Origin: a virus
Strand: one strand, 5' to 3'
Virus record (IMG/VR): IMGVR_UViG_3300033149_003588
Coordinates: 74,460-138,459 of that record
DNA: 64,000 nt
Shown here: positions 1 through 8,933 of the stretch, one piece after another
Layout: the number at the start of each line of letters is the position of its first letter
How positions within the stretch are numbered: the stretch's first letter is position 1
Translations under genes and position numbers: made by a program
The notes under the pieces: generated by a model
Told to the model about the DNA's origin: nothing
Database searches by the model: none
The model's input: the letters and a program-made list of their open reading frames with translations, nothing else

Positions 1-2207
1 TCACCATATTTACTCTTTAATTTGTCTATAGTTTCAAGAGCCTGTAAAAAACTAGGATGATTAATCGCATTGCCATAAAATTGTCCACTGCCACCAGTTA
101 TATATATAACAAGTTTACCACCTTTGGCCACGGTATCAAAATACTTATCTACCTGTCTAACAAATTCAGGACCATAAAATGTATCAGTAGGAGCAAAAAT
201 CGCGGCATGTTTTTCACCCACTCCACCACCCAATACGGGTATTATACCACCGGGAGTATTATGTGTCGCAGGTAATGCCATAATAGGTATATCAATGTCA
301 TCAATTGTAACATGAAAAACATCGCCACTATCTATAAATTCGATATTATCCTTAAAATCCTTTATATTAACTACTTCTTTATTATTAAACATAGCAGATT
401 TTTTACCATCAAGTAGTCCTTCTAACATACGGTATTCAACTTCGGTAACATAAATCTTTAAATCAGGGTTTATCTTTAACATATCAGATAAACCTAAAAT
501 ATGATCTGGATGTGTATGCGTCAACACTATACCACTTATTTTCTTACTATTATCTATTTCGCGAGGATCGAGTGTAATACCAAGAGCTTCAAGATTTTTG
601 TTAAAAAAAGAATATGGGGCCATATCTGGTCTGGCAATGTCCTCAGCAATGCCAGTGTCTATTAAAAGGTTGCCAACTATATGATCAATATTGCCCTTGG
701 TCTTTATTACTTGAACTATGGATATATTCCCAGCTGTATTTGTTGCCGTATGATATGAAAATGGTATGACACGTATTTTATCATAATTAGTAGCACTATG
801 TAATCCAGCAACCCAGTTATGATATTTCGTCGTATCAATACGGTGCTCTATAGCAGCATGCACCATATCGGTAGTCATATGCTCTATCGCCATTGAAGCC
901 CTTTTGGTAACCAAATCTGGCCTCCAGGCTTCATCAGAGAATAATATGGGTTTAATAGAACCAAATTTTCTAGCAGCATTAATAATATTAGTGTCAGACG
1001 TTAGTATAATGCCAGGGCCCCATTCAAAAACACGATGATAGGCATCCTGCTTGTCAACACCCCTGATTGCCGCTGTAATACCAACCGGTGCATTAAGATT
1101 TTTTACGCTTTCCCATATTAGCTTTTCATCTTTACCAGAACTAGATGTGTAAATCACAATGGCATTGTCAACACGATCATATAGTCTATTTAAATTATCA
1201 ACAGCGCTGGGAATAACCGTACCATCTGAAGCATATATATATTTATCTATATCAACATATATAGCAATCCTACCAGCACTAGTTAAATGCTCTTTAGAAA
1301 GCCTGCTCACCTTGGCCCCATGATAACTAACTAACTGTGATGATAATTCATCAGAAATCGATGGACCAATAATATTGCTAGCAATATGATCACCATATAA
1401 ATATATATTAGGGAGCTCTCTATTAGTTGGTTTCCTATTAGTTATCTCAAATACTCTAGACTGCTTACTCCTTAAATAATCTAAGAACTTTGTTTTCTGT
1501 AATACATCTTTCTCCTTATGTGCCCCAAATGACATCTTAACTAACTTACCATGAGGATCGTGAATCCCATCCAAATCATTAGAGTGCTCTGCTAATATGC
1601 CAATCTTGCTCTTCGTCCTAGTAGCATGTGTCACCCTGAATTTCACCCTACACCTTGTAGGAATATGACCATTAGATACAGCATCTAACATCTCCACTAA
1701 CTCATCATTAGATAATTTATCCGACAAATAAACATCACTAATAACATGATGCCCAGAAATAACTGCTATTATATCATCAACCCCCATAGTACTCGACCCA
1801 TCAAAATCAATGGCCAATGAGATGCTCTTATCAACTGACGAAAACCTATTAATCACTGCAGATATCTCATCAATGTCAGATAATAATTCATCGTGAGCAG
1901 CAAACGTAATACTGTCGAATCCCCTATCAATTAATGCACTCTGAAGTGCATCAACATGTATTTTGGGGCCAACACTATCATAAATCACATGCCCTATGTT
2001 TTTATATCGAGATATCCTGTTCTTCAAGGTATTTCTAAGTGTAGCCTCGTCGACTTTATGAATTACAATACTCTTTATAACATCATTAATATCAGATGAT
2101 AATTCTGGGACATAAATATTATTACGCCCCATAATAATAAGCATGTCTGCTATTAAGTCGGAGGAATCAACAATAATTGGAATAGTAATGTGTCTATATT
2201 GAGACAT
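1..2207 (-). CDS. Large multidomain hydrolase (>735 aa, truncated at window edge): N-terminal beta/alpha region, HAD-like domain and metallo-beta-lactamase-fold domain
   Basis: Absent from the ORF track. Manual translation from ATG at 2207 (MSQYRHITIP...) is open to base 1. Motifs: LAIDFDG (aa ~134), IYVDIDNN (aa 319-321) followed by IVIYTSSSGK, LLIDTG (D517), VLTHTHPDHILGL (HxHxDH, aa 564-569), ATHNTPG (H649). Confidence 0.8.
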   Translation of the reverse strand, partial: MSQYRHITIPIIVDSSDLIADMLIIMGRNNIYVPELSSDINDVIKSIVIHKVDEATLRNTLKNRISRYKNIGHVIYDSVGPKIHVDALQSALIDRGFDSITFAAHDELLSDIDEISAVINRFSSVDKSISLAIDFDGSSTMGVDDIIAVISGHHVISDVYLSDKLSNDELVEMLDAVSNGHIPTRCRVKFRVTHATRTKSKIGILAEHSNDLDGIHDPHGKLVKMSFGAHKEKDVLQKTKFLDYLRSKQSRVFEITNRKPTNRELPNIYLYGDHIASNIIGPSISDELSSQLVSYHGAKVSRLSKEHLTSAGRIAIYVDIDKYIYASDGTVIPSAVDNLNRLYDRVDNAIVIYTSSSGKDEKLIWESVKNLNAPVGITAAIRGVDKQDAYHRVFEWGPGIILTSDTNIINAARKFGSIKPILFSDEAWRPDLVTKRASMAIEHMTTDMVHAAIEHRIDTTKYHNWVAGLHSATNYDKIRVIPFSYHTATNTAGNISIVQVIKTKGNIDHIVGNLLIDTGIAEDIARPDMAPYSFFNKNLEALGITLDPREIDNSKKISGIVLTHTHPDHILGLSDMLKINPDLKIYVTEVEYRMLEGLLDGKKSAMFNNKEVVNIKDFKDNIEFIDSGDVFHVTIDDIDIPIMALPATHNTPGGIIPVLGGGVGEKHAAIFAPTDTFYGPEFVRQVDKYFDTVAKGGKLVIYITGGSGQFYGNAINHPSFLQALETIDKLKSKYG

Positions 2208-2215
2208 AATATATT

Positions 2216-2243
2216 TAGGACGGGCAATACATCGCCCGTCCCA
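2216..2243 (-). promoter_or_regulatory. GC-rich hairpin between portal and the HAD-MBL gene
   Basis: Minus-strand RNA UGGGACGGGC-GAUGUAUU-GCCCGUCCUA forms a 10-bp stem, 8 nt before the ATG at 2207. No U-tract follows. Confidence 0.5.
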
Positions 2244-2270: not shown

Positions 2271-4022
2271 TTAAAGCATCGGAATTCCACCACCCTTGCC
2301 ACCCCCCTCACCTTTGTCCTCCAGTTGTGCTGGTAGTGTACCCAATTCATTTTGCCTCTCCAATAGTTTGGCTTCGTGGCGAGTGGCAGCAAGTCTCTCT
2401 AATTGTATCAATGCCATTTCATCCTTGAAATTTAGATTCAATTTACTTGCGGCAGTATGCTTAGACATAATACCAGCCATGAGAGCACCAGATAGTGCAT
2501 TAATGGTACCAGGAAGGTCTTCAGTATCTAATGCAGGGAAGTTTATAGATATTACATCAATAATCGGCTTATCAACTTTCTTTACTTCACCCTTATCATC
2601 GATCTCTTCTGTTTCTACAGTATAGGTGGGTTGTAATTCTTTCCGCAATTTTACGCCAACATATAATATAAAGAATATTATTCCATACCTATAAGCATAC
2701 TCCCATGTAGCCTGCATGGCTTCCATTATTCTAACAAATGTAAATTTGGTTTCGTTAGATGGTGCCTGACCAGCATATTCAACATTACCAGTGGCAATCG
2801 GCTCGGGTAATAACGACCCATGCACAGCCATTAATTGAATAAATCTAAGATCGCCAGCCGCTTCTCCAGCACCCAAATTGGGTGCCTTATAATCATATTT
2901 AAAACGATTAGAGTGAATATTTATCTGCCCGGGCCTCGGAGGGTACCTGCGTAATTGCTTTCTTATTTTTTCTACATCTTCCCTACCACCCTGTACTTCA
3001 ATATCTAGTACATTGGCACTGCGATACTTATTAACAATAATACGATATGTTTTTAGTATCTCGTCCTCCTTCAACCACCTCAATATAGATGATAAAAATG
3101 GCAGCCCTCTCGATCTAGTACTTATAAGTGGATTTTTAATATGAAACACAAATCTGCGCCATTTAGCATTGCGAATAAGTGCCTTGATATCCTGTTGACC
3201 CCTAGTTAACGAAGTAATTCTTTGGTGACTACTGGTAGACCCATCGGTTTTATCAGATGGGGCAATAAATCTACTGGGAGCTGTAGCTTCCCATGGAACA
3301 TCTGCCCTACACAATAAATGAGTTCTAACATTCCAATTATCATCTATAATATCTAGACTAGGTATAACTTCAACTACACTATTCGTAACCTTGGTAGCAA
3401 CTGACTGCCCCTTACTAAGGGTAGCCTTTTGAATCCGCCTTTTACGCACAAACCATAACGGCGTATTGTAATCATCATACGGATCATATAGTATATCTGT
3501 TATTTCTTTACTCTCAATATCTCTTATAGTAATATTATTCGCGGCATCCACTTCAAACAGCAAAAAACACTCTCCATCGAGCAATAGCCTATTCATAAAC
3601 ATTCTTTGATTGAACTTGAGTCTATTCTTTCTAGAATTAATCACCCTATCTATATGAAGCTTAACATCGGGCTCCTCGCTATCAACAACCATATCACGCC
3701 CAACAACCATATTGGCAATAACATGGATTATCCTCCATGCTAGTGGATTATGTAAAAATGCATCCCAAGAACTTTCGACTTGCTTCTGGTGCTTGGTGAG
3801 CGGCAAATCTCGTTTATATAAACCAGCATTATCCCCCAAATTGGTCCACCCACGATCCGACTCAGAAGATTGTGCAGTTACAACGACAGCTTCTTGAATT
3901 TGTTCAGCGAGTTCTTCATTAATATAATCAGATATTTCATCATTAGAATGCTTCAATTCATCTATTTGTTTTTCAAGCCTATCCACGCCAGTCCACTTAT
4001 CAATTATATCTTTAATAAACAT
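2271..4022 (-). CDS. Portal protein
   Basis: 583 aa directly after TerL, with portal-like segments NPLAWRIIHVIANMVVG, LLLDGECFL and RSRGLPFLSSIL. Confidence 0.85.
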   Translation of the reverse strand: MFIKDIIDKWTGVDRLEKQIDELKHSNDEISDYINEELAEQIQEAVVVTAQSSESDRGWTNLGDNAGLYKRDLPLTKHQKQVESSWDAFLHNPLAWRIIHVIANMVVGRDMVVDSEEPDVKLHIDRVINSRKNRLKFNQRMFMNRLLLDGECFLLFEVDAANNITIRDIESKEITDILYDPYDDYNTPLWFVRKRRIQKATLSKGQSVATKVTNSVVEVIPSLDIIDDNWNVRTHLLCRADVPWEATAPSRFIAPSDKTDGSTSSHQRITSLTRGQQDIKALIRNAKWRRFVFHIKNPLISTRSRGLPFLSSILRWLKEDEILKTYRIIVNKYRSANVLDIEVQGGREDVEKIRKQLRRYPPRPGQINIHSNRFKYDYKAPNLGAGEAAGDLRFIQLMAVHGSLLPEPIATGNVEYAGQAPSNETKFTFVRIMEAMQATWEYAYRYGIIFFILYVGVKLRKELQPTYTVETEEIDDKGEVKKVDKPIIDVISINFPALDTEDLPGTINALSGALMAGIMSKHTAASKLNLNFKDEMALIQLERLAATRHEAKLLERQNELGTLPAQLEDKGEGGGKGGGIPML

Positions 4023-4033
4023 AATGCTCCTTA

Positions 4034-5749
4034 TTACTTTTTATCAGAGAAATCATATTGTGAATCCTTGAAATATGAATCATATGTATCATCACCTACC
4101 TCGATACGACCAACAACATCCTGATATCTAGTTAAACTAGCATCATCCATAATAGTAATATCATCAGTAGATCCACCGTATCCGGCATAATCAAATTCTT
4201 CCAACATAAGACAAATTAACGCATCACAAAAATGATCATTGCGTTTAACAATTCTACCCATCTTATTTCTACGCCATCCCTTAAGTTGTTTTGTAAAAAC
4301 CACGGTATCGTGCCCACAATCCATAATAAATAGTTTATTGGCCTCAAAATAATATTTAATAACTCCCACTGCATCTTCTTTAAATTTATGAAAATTAACA
4401 GGATGAACACTAAACCCTATTCTAGCCAAATAATCATTCTGAAATGGGTGACTCTGATCAGCCCACACCTCGGTAATGCCTGTTTCAACTCTGAGCGCAT
4501 CTAACCATTCCCTTATTTGAGTGTCAGTTGTGTTATTAAAAGCTTTCTGTTTAAACAAAATATAGTCCCTGTTATGATCTATCTGCGCCACCAATATAGC
4601 AGTCTGTCCTCTGGCACCCCAATCGATACCTATCTTGTAGCTATACTTAGAAAAATCTATACGATCCACACTCTTGGGGGCGCGAGCTATAGCACTATCT
4701 ACACTATGTGAATCCAAGACCCCCCCCACTATACTGGGACGTAACCCCATATAATCGGTCTCAAAAGTATTTGTATCTATCTTATCGACATAAAAAAACA
4801 TATCAGCCAGATCGAGCCACCCACCACCCAATCTGGCCTTACGTACATACTTAGCGCCACATATTGGGCATCTTTCAGTTGTAATGTGTGCTGGATGATG
4901 TTCTTTCCTAGTGCCATTCGGCATAATACAATCGCACACATATTTACAATATTGATTACGAATTCTTTCATGACACAAATTGCAGTCTCTATTGCATGGC
5001 TTAGATATATCAAATGCATCCCAACTATATCTAATGAATGGCTCTGAAAATCCTTCAATCTCAATATCATTTGCATCCCAAAATTCTTGAAATATACCAG
5101 TAGGCTTGTGGAAAGTGGTTAGCATTATTAGAACCTTAGGATCTGCAGTATTTATCATCGGCAATGCCGATCTTACTATATCATCTTCGGCCTCAAATAC
5201 CTCATCTATTACTAAAACACCAGGAACACCACTCCTACCAGGATGGGGACCACGAACAGACTTCTCTGATGCAGTCCTACAATTTACATATGGTATGGGA
5301 AATATGCCACCCTTAGTAATGCGTTCCCTTAGTAAATCACCGTCACCCATACTATCACGGGCTTCACTATCACTATATAAAAAACCAGATATATGATCAT
5401 AAACAGCCCTAGCTTGCTCTTCACTACCACCCAGATTGACACACTGAGCATTTAAAAACATCCATGCTGCATATTCTATCATCGCAACTAAATAACTCTT
5501 ACCAGAACCTCTAGGCCCAACCATTAATACCCTAGTGTCCTTGCCAGCACGTATTCTATTATAAATAGTATTAAACATAATGCGAATTTTGGGTGGGAAC
5601 AAAGCATTATGTCTAGTTTCAAAATATTTTATTGGATCATCTCGATATTTCTCTATAAATGTCGGCTCTATATTGATCCCATTAATAAGATCTTCAATAG
5701 AAGTGTTAAGTTCTATTAATTTGCTACCTATGCCTTTATACTCACTCAT
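4034..5749 (-). CDS. terL: Terminase large subunit
   Basis: Walker A GPRGSGKS, Walker B LVIDE, coupling motif LTT, RNase H-like nuclease IGIDWG...WADQSH...NDHFCDAL. Confidence 0.93.
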   Translation of the reverse strand: MSEYKGIGSKLIELNTSIEDLINGINIEPTFIEKYRDDPIKYFETRHNALFPPKIRIMFNTIYNRIRAGKDTRVLMVGPRGSGKSYLVAMIEYAAWMFLNAQCVNLGGSEEQARAVYDHISGFLYSDSEARDSMGDGDLLRERITKGGIFPIPYVNCRTASEKSVRGPHPGRSGVPGVLVIDEVFEAEDDIVRSALPMINTADPKVLIMLTTFHKPTGIFQEFWDANDIEIEGFSEPFIRYSWDAFDISKPCNRDCNLCHERIRNQYCKYVCDCIMPNGTRKEHHPAHITTERCPICGAKYVRKARLGGGWLDLADMFFYVDKIDTNTFETDYMGLRPSIVGGVLDSHSVDSAIARAPKSVDRIDFSKYSYKIGIDWGARGQTAILVAQIDHNRDYILFKQKAFNNTTDTQIREWLDALRVETGITEVWADQSHPFQNDYLARIGFSVHPVNFHKFKEDAVGVIKYYFEANKLFIMDCGHDTVVFTKQLKGWRRNKMGRIVKRNDHFCDALICLMLEEFDYAGYGGSTDDITIMDDASLTRYQDVVGRIEVGDDTYDSYFKDSQYDFSDKK

Positions 5750-5775: not shown

Positions 5776-6354
5776 TTAGTCAACTACTTCATATTGTGCA
5801 TCTTGAACTTCTGTAACAGCAGGTATTGATTTAAGATTAATATTAATTTTTTTTAATTGCCGATTAAGCTGGGCGGTAAATTCTTTCTTTATTTCAGGAT
5901 ATGATTCTAATATATTATTAATAATCGATAATAATGCCTGCTGTGCAGCATATGCCTTATCTACAGTGTGGGTGACCTCTATTTTATTAGTAAGTAATTG
6001 TAAAACCTTCGCCTTCGCAAGGGACGCATCCATAATTTTACCAAATAGAGCAATTTTGTTTTTAACGCTTATTTCTTCATCTCCCTCTAACAATGTCCAA
6101 CAATGTCGATTAACAAGCTCCAATTCTTTAAGACGATCATATATGTGCCTAGATTTGTCATCAAGAATATTATTTTTCTCTAGTTTATCCCTAATAGCAT
6201 CAGTACGGGTGGCTATGGCATCAATAATATCTCCATCCGAGGCATTAATACCAACCTCCTGCAATAATTTACGTATATCTGGTATGGTAAGATCTTTAGA
6301 TACTGCCTCGGAAATTATACGAGTCATGTCCTCTTTATCATAATCTACTGCCAA
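5776..6354 (-). CDS. Putative terminase small subunit
   Basis: 192 aa, helical, with an N-terminal HTH-like segment, immediately upstream of terL. Confidence 0.5.
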   Translation of the reverse strand: MAVDYDKEDMTRIISEAVSKDLTIPDIRKLLQEVGINASDGDIIDAIATRTDAIRDKLEKNNILDDKSRHIYDRLKELELVNRHCWTLLEGDEEISVKNKIALFGKIMDASLAKAKVLQLLTNKIEVTHTVDKAYAAQQALLSIINNILESYPEIKKEFTAQLNRQLKKININLKSIPAVTEVQDAQYEVVD

Positions 6355-6375: not shown

Positions 6376-7260
6376 TTATGTACCCTTAATCTGGCGATCC
6401 CGCTGTGCCTTTTTCCTACATAAAACTGAACAATACTTTTGAAACGGCTTAGGATTCTCAATAATATTATCGCAATACTTATATGCACATTTTATTGGAG
6501 TAACTTTGGATTTATTCATCCTGGACTTCTTGCGTAAAAACGACATTCTACATTTCGCAGAACAATATTTTTTGACAGATCCTATTGGAACATTAAATTC
6601 GACACCACAATTCGGACATACTTTAGTAATAGTGGTAACGATATTGTTATTTTCATCGAGAGTAACTTGTCTAAACTTATTAAGTGCCAATGCAAGATGT
6701 TCTTTAATGGCAAACCAGGAAACCCCCTTATAGCTGGCAATCTGAGGCATTGACATATGATCATAGAAATACATATATAGTGTAGACCGCTGTTCATCTG
6801 TAAATATATTAGATTTATCACATATCAACTTCAACAGAACACGCAACTCCGTCGAAGTCAGATCAAATTCTGACTGACGCGGTAACATAACATAGCCTAA
6901 AGTCTTAATCTTATCCATAATACATTTGTTATAATAATGAGTTATACATGCTTCCCCATCATAACCGTCATTCGGAGTATCTTCGCTATCCCCAGATAAA
7001 TAATCATATGACACAGACGCTAGAGAATCATTTTCAAAAATATTTGGATCCATGGGTACTTCTACAAACATCCCCCTATTCATGTGGTCACCATTTATAT
7101 AATCCATAATAAGCTTATTGTGACATACAAATTTATAACTAGTTGATTTTTCTTGACATATATAATTTGTACACCCCTTACAACATGGAACAAGCGGATT
7201 AATCATTATAATGCCCGTTGCATCTACAATACTCAAGTATATCTGAATCCCCATGTTCAC
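6376..7260 (-). CDS. Sigma-70 region-4-like HTH protein with C-terminal zinc ribbons
   Basis: FTDEQRSTLYMYFYDHMSMPQIASYKGVS HTH, followed by CPNC..YCSAKC and CAYKYC..YCSVLC. Confidence 0.6.
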   Translation of the reverse strand: MNMGIQIYLSIVDATGIIMINPLVPCCKGCTNYICQEKSTSYKFVCHNKLIMDYINGDHMNRGMFVEVPMDPNIFENDSLASVSYDYLSGDSEDTPNDGYDGEACITHYYNKCIMDKIKTLGYVMLPRQSEFDLTSTELRVLLKLICDKSNIFTDEQRSTLYMYFYDHMSMPQIASYKGVSWFAIKEHLALALNKFRQVTLDENNNIVTTITKVCPNCGVEFNVPIGSVKKYCSAKCRMSFLRKKSRMNKSKVTPIKCAYKYCDNIIENPKPFQKYCSVLCRKKAQRDRQIKGT

Positions 7261-8933
7261 TATAATGTCTCCATATAATAATCACCTACCACACCATTAA
7301 TTGAGTTCAATGTTAATACATGATCGAAATTATTTTTCAATACCCCAACATCACTATGCGTTATAAGTATCAACAACCCTATATTATATCTGTCCACACA
7401 ATATCTAAGCATATCAACAAATTTGTCCCTATAAATTATATCCATTGCTCCAAGCCCTTCATCTATGGCAGCTATTCTGGGAGCCTTAGGATACCTTTTA
7501 TAAAATATAGATAACATAGCAATTCTTAAAGCAAATGATATCCATACCTTCTGGGAATATGACAAAGCACTAATATGATATTCAATATTCGTTGATCTCT
7601 TTATAAATGAAAAAGTAATCCCCTTACTCGTCTTCCCACTCGTAAATTGCTTGTCAGTATTTATCTTGAATACAAAAGGAAACTCGATCCTATTAAGAAT
7701 GTCATTCACAGCTACCTCGATAAATTGCTTATACTTATTAAATATCGACAATTGAATCCCATTGCTACCAAATATCTTGGTCAAATTATTATATATAATT
7801 ATATCTTTATTATATCGTTCTTTCTCTTGCAATAAAGTAACTCGTTGCTCTTCGAGTGACTCAGCAATACCCCTATCATGTGCAAACTGCTGAATCTTAC
7901 TCATCAAGATAGATGAACAACGTTTTGCAAGTTTATATCTATGTTCTGCAAAATCATCCAGAATATCACAGGTATTAACCCGAGATCCAGAAGCTATAAT
8001 GGTTTGTAATCTATTAATCCTATCCATTATAATATCAGCGTTATCACTACTTAGTTTTTCTATTATCAACCTTAGCATATTTACATTAGAGCCACACACT
8101 GGGCATATCATGTCATTTTGATAATTCATCAAGGCGGATATAAGAGTCGGATCATATGTCTCAGTGTTACGCAATATTTCTAATTCGTAACGAGCACACT
8201 CAACCTCGCGCAACTTATTAATCTGCGCACGTATCATAGGTAGTGTAACACCAGAACATTTAACAGAATATCTCTCGGCATATCTATTAAAATTATCCAA
8301 TTTCTTTTTTAATCGATCAATATGTTCAGCAGAAACACAATAAACATCATCACTAGGTAATTGTTTTAATTTATATTCCACATCACTTAACAATAATTTT
8401 ATTTCCTTTAACTTATGTTTAGTATCACCATTATACTGTTCCCAACTATCTAACTGTAAAAGATAATACAATAACGACTTGATACCCTTATCAGTGCTAG
8501 CAATCAAATCGTTCCCATATTCCTGGCTCATGTATAATATATTATCTACCACATTTGTTGTTATCCCAGTAATAGATTTTATAAACTCCTTTATATCTGG
8601 CTGTCTATTGCCCCCCTGCGCCTCGCCATTCACCATACACTTTAATATTGTGCCGTCTTTCTGCTTACCCCTAATAATAGAAATACCATCATATGATAGC
8701 ATAACGCTCATATCATCATATTTTTGGGGGTGTCGTCTAACAAGCTCACCGATAGTTTTAAACTTATTCCATCCAGACATGACATACCATATAGCTTCAC
8801 ATAAACTAGATTTGCCAACATAATTATTGCCACCATCTTCTCTAACACCTCTTAATAACATTAGACCAGATGATGGCAATTCTATATTAATATCACTAAA
8901 TAATTTAAAATTGTGGATTTTTAATAATATCAT
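7260..8933 (-). CDS. sbcC: SbcC/Rad50 (gp46-like) ATPase
   Basis: N-terminal GKS Walker A, CPVC zinc hook, LSYSQ signature, AIDEG Walker B, ITH. Confidence 0.9.
   Translation of the reverse strand: MILLKIHNFKLFSDINIELPSSGLMLLRGVREDGGNNYVGKSSLCEAIWYVMSGWNKFKTIGELVRRHPQKYDDMSVMLSYDGISIIRGKQKDGTILKCMVNGEAQGGNRQPDIKEFIKSITGITTNVVDNILYMSQEYGNDLIASTDKGIKSLLYYLLQLDSWEQYNGDTKHKLKEIKLLLSDVEYKLKQLPSDDVYCVSAEHIDRLKKKLDNFNRYAERYSVKCSGVTLPMIRAQINKLREVECARYELEILRNTETYDPTLISALMNYQNDMICPVCGSNVNMLRLIIEKLSSDNADIIMDRINRLQTIIASGSRVNTCDILDDFAEHRYKLAKRCSSILMSKIQQFAHDRGIAESLEEQRVTLLQEKERYNKDIIIYNNLTKIFGSNGIQLSIFNKYKQFIEVAVNDILNRIEFPFVFKINTDKQFTSGKTSKGITFSFIKRSTNIEYHISALSYSQKVWISFALRIAMLSIFYKRYPKAPRIAAIDEGLGAMDIIYRDKFVDMLRYCVDRYNIGLLILITHSDVGVLKNNFDHVLTLNSINGVVGDYYMETL

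Follow-up and report, generated by a model that had tools for sequence, protein, structure and literature searches.

The subject of this study is a 64,000-nucleotide stretch of virus DNA (bases 74460-138459 of IMG/VR virus record IMGVR_UViG_3300033149_003588, hereafter the window), taken from a complete record of 144,798 bp with 104-bp terminal repeats, and in particular the gene that lies at its start. From the letters of the window, a stop-free open reading frame (ORF) directly after the portal gene had been proposed to encode a fusion of at least 735 amino acids (aa) combining a HAD domain with a metallo-beta-lactamase (MBL) domain. The frame is real: it lies on the minus strand, opens with an ATG at window position 2207, and runs off the window start after 735 codons. 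When the adjacent sequence was retrieved for the C-terminus, the frame continued to 5,279 codons as a single ORF (G000:C1:60827-76666 in whole-genome coordinates, minus strand). The original figure greatly understated the gene, and what had been taken for a two-domain fusion of about 735 residues is instead the tip of a 5,279-residue, 596-kDa protein whose gene makes up 11% of the 144.8-kb genome. The window holds 14% of this gene, with the following features:

Window 3..2207, minus strand: first 735 codons of the giant gene, a stop-free ORF; the other 4,544 codons are outside the window, ahead of its first base.
Window 1323..2207, minus strand: N-terminal region without a known family (aa 1-295), which holds the first DxD motif (DFDGS, aa 134-138).
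Window 933..1280, minus strand: probable HAD-like, capless phosphatase-type domain (aa ~310-425), called from phrog_1238, Protein Atlas features, and the beta-alpha pattern of a structural model.
Window 3..695, minus strand: MBL-fold hydrolase domain (aa ~505-735, continuing to ~760 past the window edge), called from Pfam, ligand motifs, and Foldseek.

We read the giant ORF as one real gene because its codon usage is uniform, in-frame, and gene-like throughout. In each of 11 blocks of 500 codons, the in-frame codon usage correlates with that of the other genes of the genome (r 0.84-0.93), and the out-of-frame values are 0.12-0.34. GC content and GC content at third codon positions (GC3) are flat along the same 11 blocks, with no break in composition, and the stop-free span reaches 15.8 kb in a genome of 36% GC. 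An assembly chimera, which had been named as a possible refutation, left no sign in codon usage, GC, or GC3. What had been flagged is the N-terminal part of a single, real phage gene that encodes 5,279 residues. Among public sequencing runs, a single DNA run from a hydrothermal vent metagenome contained a 253-nt piece identical to part of the portal gene (L002:18770-19022, a low-depth contig corresponding to window ~2310-2562) along with short unrelated matches; this piece, which may derive from the source sample itself, is too short for confirming the assembly or identifying a habitat. No RNA runs holding the stretch were listed.

The membership of aa ~505-760 in the MBL superfamily is, on sequence grounds, settled. 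Two Pfam families covering aa ~512-684 match above their cut-offs, PF12706 (Lactamase_B_2; E = 5e-11, 42.9 bits against a gathering cut-off of 27) and PF00753 (Lactamase_B; E = 1.6e-9, 38.4 bits against 22.7), and a profile search of the genome recovered this MBL match as the sole one. All five ligand motifs are present and in order, i.e. D517, H564-H566-D568-H569 (the HxHxDH motif, aa 564-569), H649, D675, and H717; the claim of a complete HxHxDH signature therefore stands, the last elements of the domain lying past the window edge at ~aa 760. By chance, HxHxDH would be expected 0.004 times in the whole giant protein. A binuclear MBL-fold site with all of its metal ligands intact is predicted from these residues.

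The subfamily is less clear. A phmmer search with the 735 aa against 1.84 billion representatives returned only six weak matches (P0005-P0010), all on the MBL motif, with 33-59% identity over the HxHxDH block plus the helix after it and E values of 2e-5 to 9e-4. An AlphaFold2 model of the MBL domain built from seven sequences (the query and these six neighbours) reached a mean predicted local distance difference test score (pLDDT) of 54.9. With this model, the top 50 Foldseek matches in the PDB were MBL folds in 50 of 50 cases, at TM-scores of 0.26-0.37, and they spanned ETHE1-like proteins, Artemis, RNase J, B3 lactamases, RNase Z, and PhnP-like proteins; the model thus backs the superfamily and cannot rank subfamilies. 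Only 41 residues separate D675 from H717, which leaves no room for a beta-CASP insert after MBL motif 4, and a beta-CASP nuclease (RNase J, CPSF73, Artemis) was rejected as a candidate. Matches to NCBIfam RNase J models were restricted to the HxHxDH block and far below cut-off. The chain of the phage enzyme Apyc1 of Bsp38 (7T28) matched at E = 0.31 over 26 motif residues, ranking tenth behind nine other MBL chains, and no Apyc1 structure appeared among the top 50 PDB fold matches. The suggested functions as an Apyc1-like enzyme, an RNase Z/J-like nuclease, or a dNTP-editing enzyme are not favoured by anything over other MBL activities.

Upstream of the MBL domain, the region of aa ~310-425 is a probable small HAD-type phosphatase domain, as judged from profile, feature, and model evidence taken together. 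The family phrog_1238 matches aa 309-370 at E = 8.5e-5 (profile positions 18-81). Its database label is "phosphoheptose isomerase"; however, E. coli GmhB, a true HAD phosphatase, matches positions 20-86 of this profile (E = 9e-5), whereas the actual isomerase, E. coli GmhA, does not, and we therefore consider phrog_1238 to be a HAD-type family. Within the profile, D319 and D321 align at the place of the DxD of GmhB. The candidate HAD motifs are D319/D321 for motif I, T354-S357 for motif II, and D404 for motif IV. In a single-sequence AlphaFold2 model of aa 1-800 (pLDDT 39, used only for the order of secondary structures), each of these follows a predicted strand of a beta-alpha array, in a part of the model with pLDDT below 50. 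As a further lead only, language-model features of aa 290-480 retrieve HAD, NIF, and acid-phosphatase clusters of the Protein Atlas at 0.80-0.83. Direct BLASTP of this region against E. coli GmhB gave nothing, and a genome scan with phrog_1238 at E <= 0.01 did not recover it.

Two DxD motifs had been read as HAD signatures, at aa 134-136 (DFD) and aa 319-321 (DID). The match to phrog_1238 lends some weight to the second, but the first is without support from any profile, feature, or fold, and was rejected as a HAD motif; the 735 aa contain five DxD motifs against 5.7 expected by chance. We also dropped the idea that DFDGS forms a metal site of the Toprim or RNA-polymerase-like type, there being nothing in its support. 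The surrounding N-terminal region (aa 1-295) has no match in Pfam, NCBIfam, PHROGs, or the Protein Atlas. In the low-confidence model, a predicted beta-alpha-beta-alpha array at aa 46-136 (window 1800-2070) ends in DFDGS, the DxD following the fourth strand rather than the first. The segment of aa 46-136 may be a further domain, catalytic or metal-binding, that precedes the HAD-like and MBL domains.

The third recognisable part of the giant protein is located far from its tip. At aa ~4373-4465, eight PHROG families of head-morphogenesis or minor head proteins match at E < 0.001, the best being phrog_241 (E = 2.6e-11); in the genome scan, the MuF PHROG match had an E value of 2.9e-13 and was the only one in the genome. 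The same segment is matched by TIGR01641 (phage SPP1 gp7; E = 3.5e-6, 27.4 bits against a cut-off of 39.65) and by PF04233 (Phage_Mu_F; E = 0.047, 14.9 bits against 29.6). From these profiles, the giant gene appears to carry a head-protein domain of the MuF/gp7 type. The segment contains a CxxC (4402-4405) and an HxxCxC (4427-4432) motif, and is situated at 83% of the protein length, after an extension of ~4,370 aa and before an unassigned tail of ~800 aa. A complex prediction of the portal protein with aa 4330-4520 returned "no answer", with a partner pLDDT of 43-44, and counts as evidence neither way.

The genomic context agrees with the presence of such a domain. The neighbouring features, in gene order, are:

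Window 4034..5749, minus strand: TerL gene, 571 aa (phrog_2, E = 3.3e-16, and four other TerL PHROGs).
Window 2271..4022, minus strand: portal gene, 583 aa, directly upstream of the giant gene (phrog_10963, E = 4.3e-14).
Window 2216..2243, minus strand: GC-rich hairpin of 12 bp, located in the 63 nt that separate the portal stop codon from the giant ATG.
Directly downstream of the giant gene: gene for a 218-aa protein of no known family.
After the 218-aa gene: gene for a 478-aa protein with a match to a fused protease-capsid PHROG, in the N-terminal part of the latter.
After the 478-aa gene: gene for a cement/decoration protein (PF09956, phrog_122).
After the decoration gene: gene for the major capsid protein (Phage_capsid_4, E = 4e-42).

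The order is thus TerL, portal, giant gene, 218-aa protein, 478-aa protein, decoration protein, and major capsid protein, and the giant gene occupies the slot in which tailed phages keep their MuF/gp7 gene. The position directly after the portal gene, as originally described, is confirmed by the portal match. The expectation that the gene following the portal is usually a head morphogenesis factor also appears to hold here, given the predicted MuF/gp7 domain in the giant gene. The earlier suggestion of a "possibly virion-associated" protein gains backing, at the level of sequence, on two counts: the polypeptide itself includes this domain, and its gene has the canonical position after the portal gene. 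A tape-measure-like protein of 1,699 aa is encoded further downstream.

The hairpin in the spacer ends 9 nt ahead of the giant ATG, and its sequence is unique in the genome; the 81-nt fold around it has a predicted energy of -24.9 kcal/mol (z -4.3). No Shine-Dalgarno core is found upstream of the giant ATG, and such a core, or one like it, precedes only 67 of the 146 genes. The hairpin may throttle the expression of a low-copy protein, as a candidate attenuator, processing site, or translational brake.

Several other features of the region were recorded. Upstream of TerL lies a gene for a 192-aa protein of no known family (window 5776-6354), followed at window 6376-8933 (minus strand) by genes for a 294-aa protein with an HNH endonuclease domain and a 557-aa SbcC-like ATPase (phrog_77, E = 3e-32). 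An HNH gene near the terminase gene is a common packaging accessory. Outside the window, between the head and tail genes (G000:C1:51986-53176), there is a gene for a protein of 396 aa that has a DNA-repair-exonuclease/metallophosphoesterase domain (phrog_7339, E = 7e-34) and, at its N-terminus, a weak D5-like match. About 139 of the 146 ORFs of at least 80 aa in the whole genome are on the minus strand, the GC skew is negative across the whole window without a change of sign, and no tRNA genes were found in the genome.

The search for relatives was largely unsuccessful. Scans of aa 700-5279 against Pfam, PHROG, NCBIfam, and PDB sequences found nothing beyond MuF, and the 800 C-terminal residues had no usable match in the Protein Atlas. 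BLAST of the giant protein against itself revealed no internal repeats, and no transmembrane-like segments were detected, a mildly hydrophobic stretch at aa 7-25 excepted. When aa 1-800 and aa 800-5279 were used in word-indexed searches of giant proteins, only the protein itself was retrieved. A homologue search with the portal protein returned nothing, and neither did tblastn against 50,697 phage records, for which TerL and the HAD region served as queries. IMG/VR was also scanned for patterns taken from the portal and the N-terminus, and JGI metagenomes for patterns from the N-terminus; no relatives emerged. Because TerL, the portal protein, and the giant protein are without detectable relatives, the phage looks like a deep orphan lineage.

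Taken together, we favour, with moderate confidence, the reading that the giant protein is a MuF-anchored internal capsid protein of the polyvalent kind, probably ejected, with a HAD-like/MBL phosphohydrolase pair as its N-terminal tip. The MuF domain would dock the polypeptide to the portal during procapsid assembly, leading to the enclosure of one or a few copies; the protein, whole or as cut fragments, would then exit with the DNA at infection, and its N-terminal tip would act in the host ahead of any phage gene expression. The most likely chemistry would be the cleavage of a phosphodiester by the MBL domain, after which the HAD domain would strip the resulting terminal phosphate, and candidate substrates are nucleic-acid ends or nucleotide-type molecules. 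A phosphodiesterase or nuclease plus a phosphatase is the natural reading of such a pair. We propose packaging and delivery because of the literature on MuF proteins and polyvalent proteins. The muf genes directly follow portal genes, each SPP1 capsid has 1-2 copies of gp7 bound to its portal (PMC5576092), and MuF is often fused to effector domains (PMC5576092; PMC5512222). Polyvalent proteins of phages exceed 2,000 aa, occur in portal-terminase contexts, and are predicted to be packaged and injected (Iyer et al. 2017; PMC5512222). Beyond the presence of these domains in this order in a head-module slot, each step of the mechanism is something we infer.

Several observations weigh against this reading. 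About 4,400 of the 5,279 residues (85%) match nothing in Pfam, PHROGs, NCBIfam, or PDB sequences, and the bulk of the protein may be structural. Neither TIGR01641 nor the Pfam MuF model reaches its curated cut-off, the MuF call coming mainly from PHROG profiles. The HAD call is weak: no Pfam or NCBIfam HAD model matched aa ~310-425, even at E values up to 10, and this region was modelled at pLDDT below 50. Motif I of the HAD-like domain reads DIDKY, not DxDx[T/V], and so lacks the usual T/V. Described MuF toxins have an N-terminal MuF and a C-terminal effector (PMC5576092), whereas the enzymes here are placed ~3,600 residues upstream of MuF, and described polyvalent proteins are dense in recognisable domains, which are sparse in this one. 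No homologues were found in which to compare the metal ligands. Finally, the presence of the giant protein in the virion is a prediction from sequence.

The alternative that survives best is that of a mainly structural giant head protein, in which the ~4,400 residues would form an internal capsid body, a DNA-spooling core, or a scaffold held at the portal by MuF, and the HAD-like/MBL tip would work in the producing cell or inside the capsid (e.g., on DNA ends during packaging) rather than being injected. Most of the protein is indeed devoid of enzyme signatures and repeats, its gene is located among head-assembly genes, and SPP1 gp7 itself has no enzyme (PMC5576092). On the other hand, the intact binuclear MBL ligand set points to a working enzyme, the fusion of an enzyme to MuF is a recognised mark of delivered effectors (PMC5512222), and the existence of a separate tape-measure-like protein makes a head-derived conduit unneeded. 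We consider this main alternative rather unlikely.

A bolder version of the delivery model would be that this orphan phage packs a 596-kDa protein whose injected HAD-like/MBL pair acts within seconds of the start of infection, either by destroying immune signals made of nucleotides or by repairing or cleaving the ends of RNA. The protein would then be a virion-delivered counterpart of Apyc1-type enzymes, and the ~4,400 residues, with MuF near the C-terminus, would constitute a new capsid-internal carrier architecture; as a whole, this proposal is decidedly speculative and we judge it unlikely.

Restricting the function to anti-defence phosphodiesterase activity is more doubtful still. The MBL domain would degrade cyclic (oligo)nucleotide immune signals as Apyc1 does, the HAD domain would dephosphorylate the products, and injection would allow both to act before phage gene expression. 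Apyc1 belongs to the class II phosphodiesterases, has an MBL fold, and uses the same binuclear site, HxHxDH (PMC9117128); the best Pfam match of our domain, Lactamase_B_2, is a phosphodiesterase-rich family, and the MuF fusion suggests delivery. However, the motif-only match to 7T28 and the fold matches devoid of Apyc1 structures, both described above, argue against this specific function, and nothing links the host to Pycsar or CBASS, making this option improbable. Nucleotide-pool editing for a modified genome, in which the pair would hydrolyse dATP or dAMP, is very improbable: there is no evident need for such an enzyme within a 596-kDa MuF-linked head protein encoded in a head operon, and the dATP-removing enzymes of modified-genome phages are not known to have MBL or HAD folds. 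Least credible of all is an artefact, either an assembly chimera or a falsely long frame from several fused genes. Read-level coverage is limited to the 253 nt in the portal gene from one public run, but the stop-free length, the uniform codon usage, GC, and GC3, the closure of the genome by terminal repeats, and the location of nearly all genes on one strand speak against it.

If the favoured reading of a packaged and ejected MuF-anchored protein is correct, it bears on the very start of infection: proteins that are injected with phage DNA act before phage gene expression and so decide how the first contact with host defences turns out. Giant proteins linked to MuF are predicted to be the chief carriers of injected cargo, and almost none has been tested. 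Here, a complete 145-kb phage gives 11% of its genome to a single protein, 85% of which is sequence "dark matter". The layout of this protein is unusual: its enzymes are found at the extreme N-terminal end, and its MuF domain comes at 83% of the length. The case is also a caution for window-based scans, in which a "two-domain fusion" at an edge can be the tip of a much larger protein.

Among known systems, the only sequence neighbours of the giant protein in 1.84 billion representatives are the small (~200 aa) MBL-fold hydrolases of uncultured organisms P0005-P0010, which, unlike the giant protein, are stand-alone; the matches to them cover only 40-100 residues. Like Apyc1 (Hobbs et al. 2022; PMC9117128), the giant protein is phage-encoded and has an MBL domain in which HxHxDH would form a binuclear site, but Apyc1 is a free-standing homodimer (the 7T28 chain has 257 residues) and its sequence match is insignificant. 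With respect to SPP1 gp7 (TIGR01641) and Mu gpF (PF04233), the C-terminal two-thirds of both profiles are covered and the gene position is the same; gp7, however, is a single-domain protein, and both scores fall short of the cut-offs. As in the MuF superfamily and the polymorphic toxins related to it (Jamet et al. 2017; PMC5576092), a predicted MuF-type domain is encoded by the gene that directly follows the portal gene and is fused to additional domains, but those MuF toxins are far smaller and carry MuF at the N-terminus followed by a C-terminal toxin.

The closest parallel is provided by the polyvalent proteins (Iyer, Burroughs, Anand, de Souza, Aravind 2017; PMC5512222), which are likewise very large (>2,000 aa) multidomain polypeptides of the portal-terminase module, with enzymes predicted to be packaged, and for which MuF served as a seed domain. 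The giant protein differs from them in having no sequence relatives and only three recognisable domains in 5,279 aa, two of them read as hydrolases. The polyvalent hub domains (methylase, SNF2 helicase, metallopeptidase, ART, and ArdC-N) and the Pfam LPD families were not found in it; conversely, neither "lactamase" nor "phosphatase" occurs in the text of PMC5512222, and the HAD/MBL cargo is new relative to the domains described there. In summary, the class of polyvalent/MuF giant proteins was already known, and what this phage adds to it is the cargo pair, the near-C-terminal position of MuF, and the sparseness of recognisable domains.

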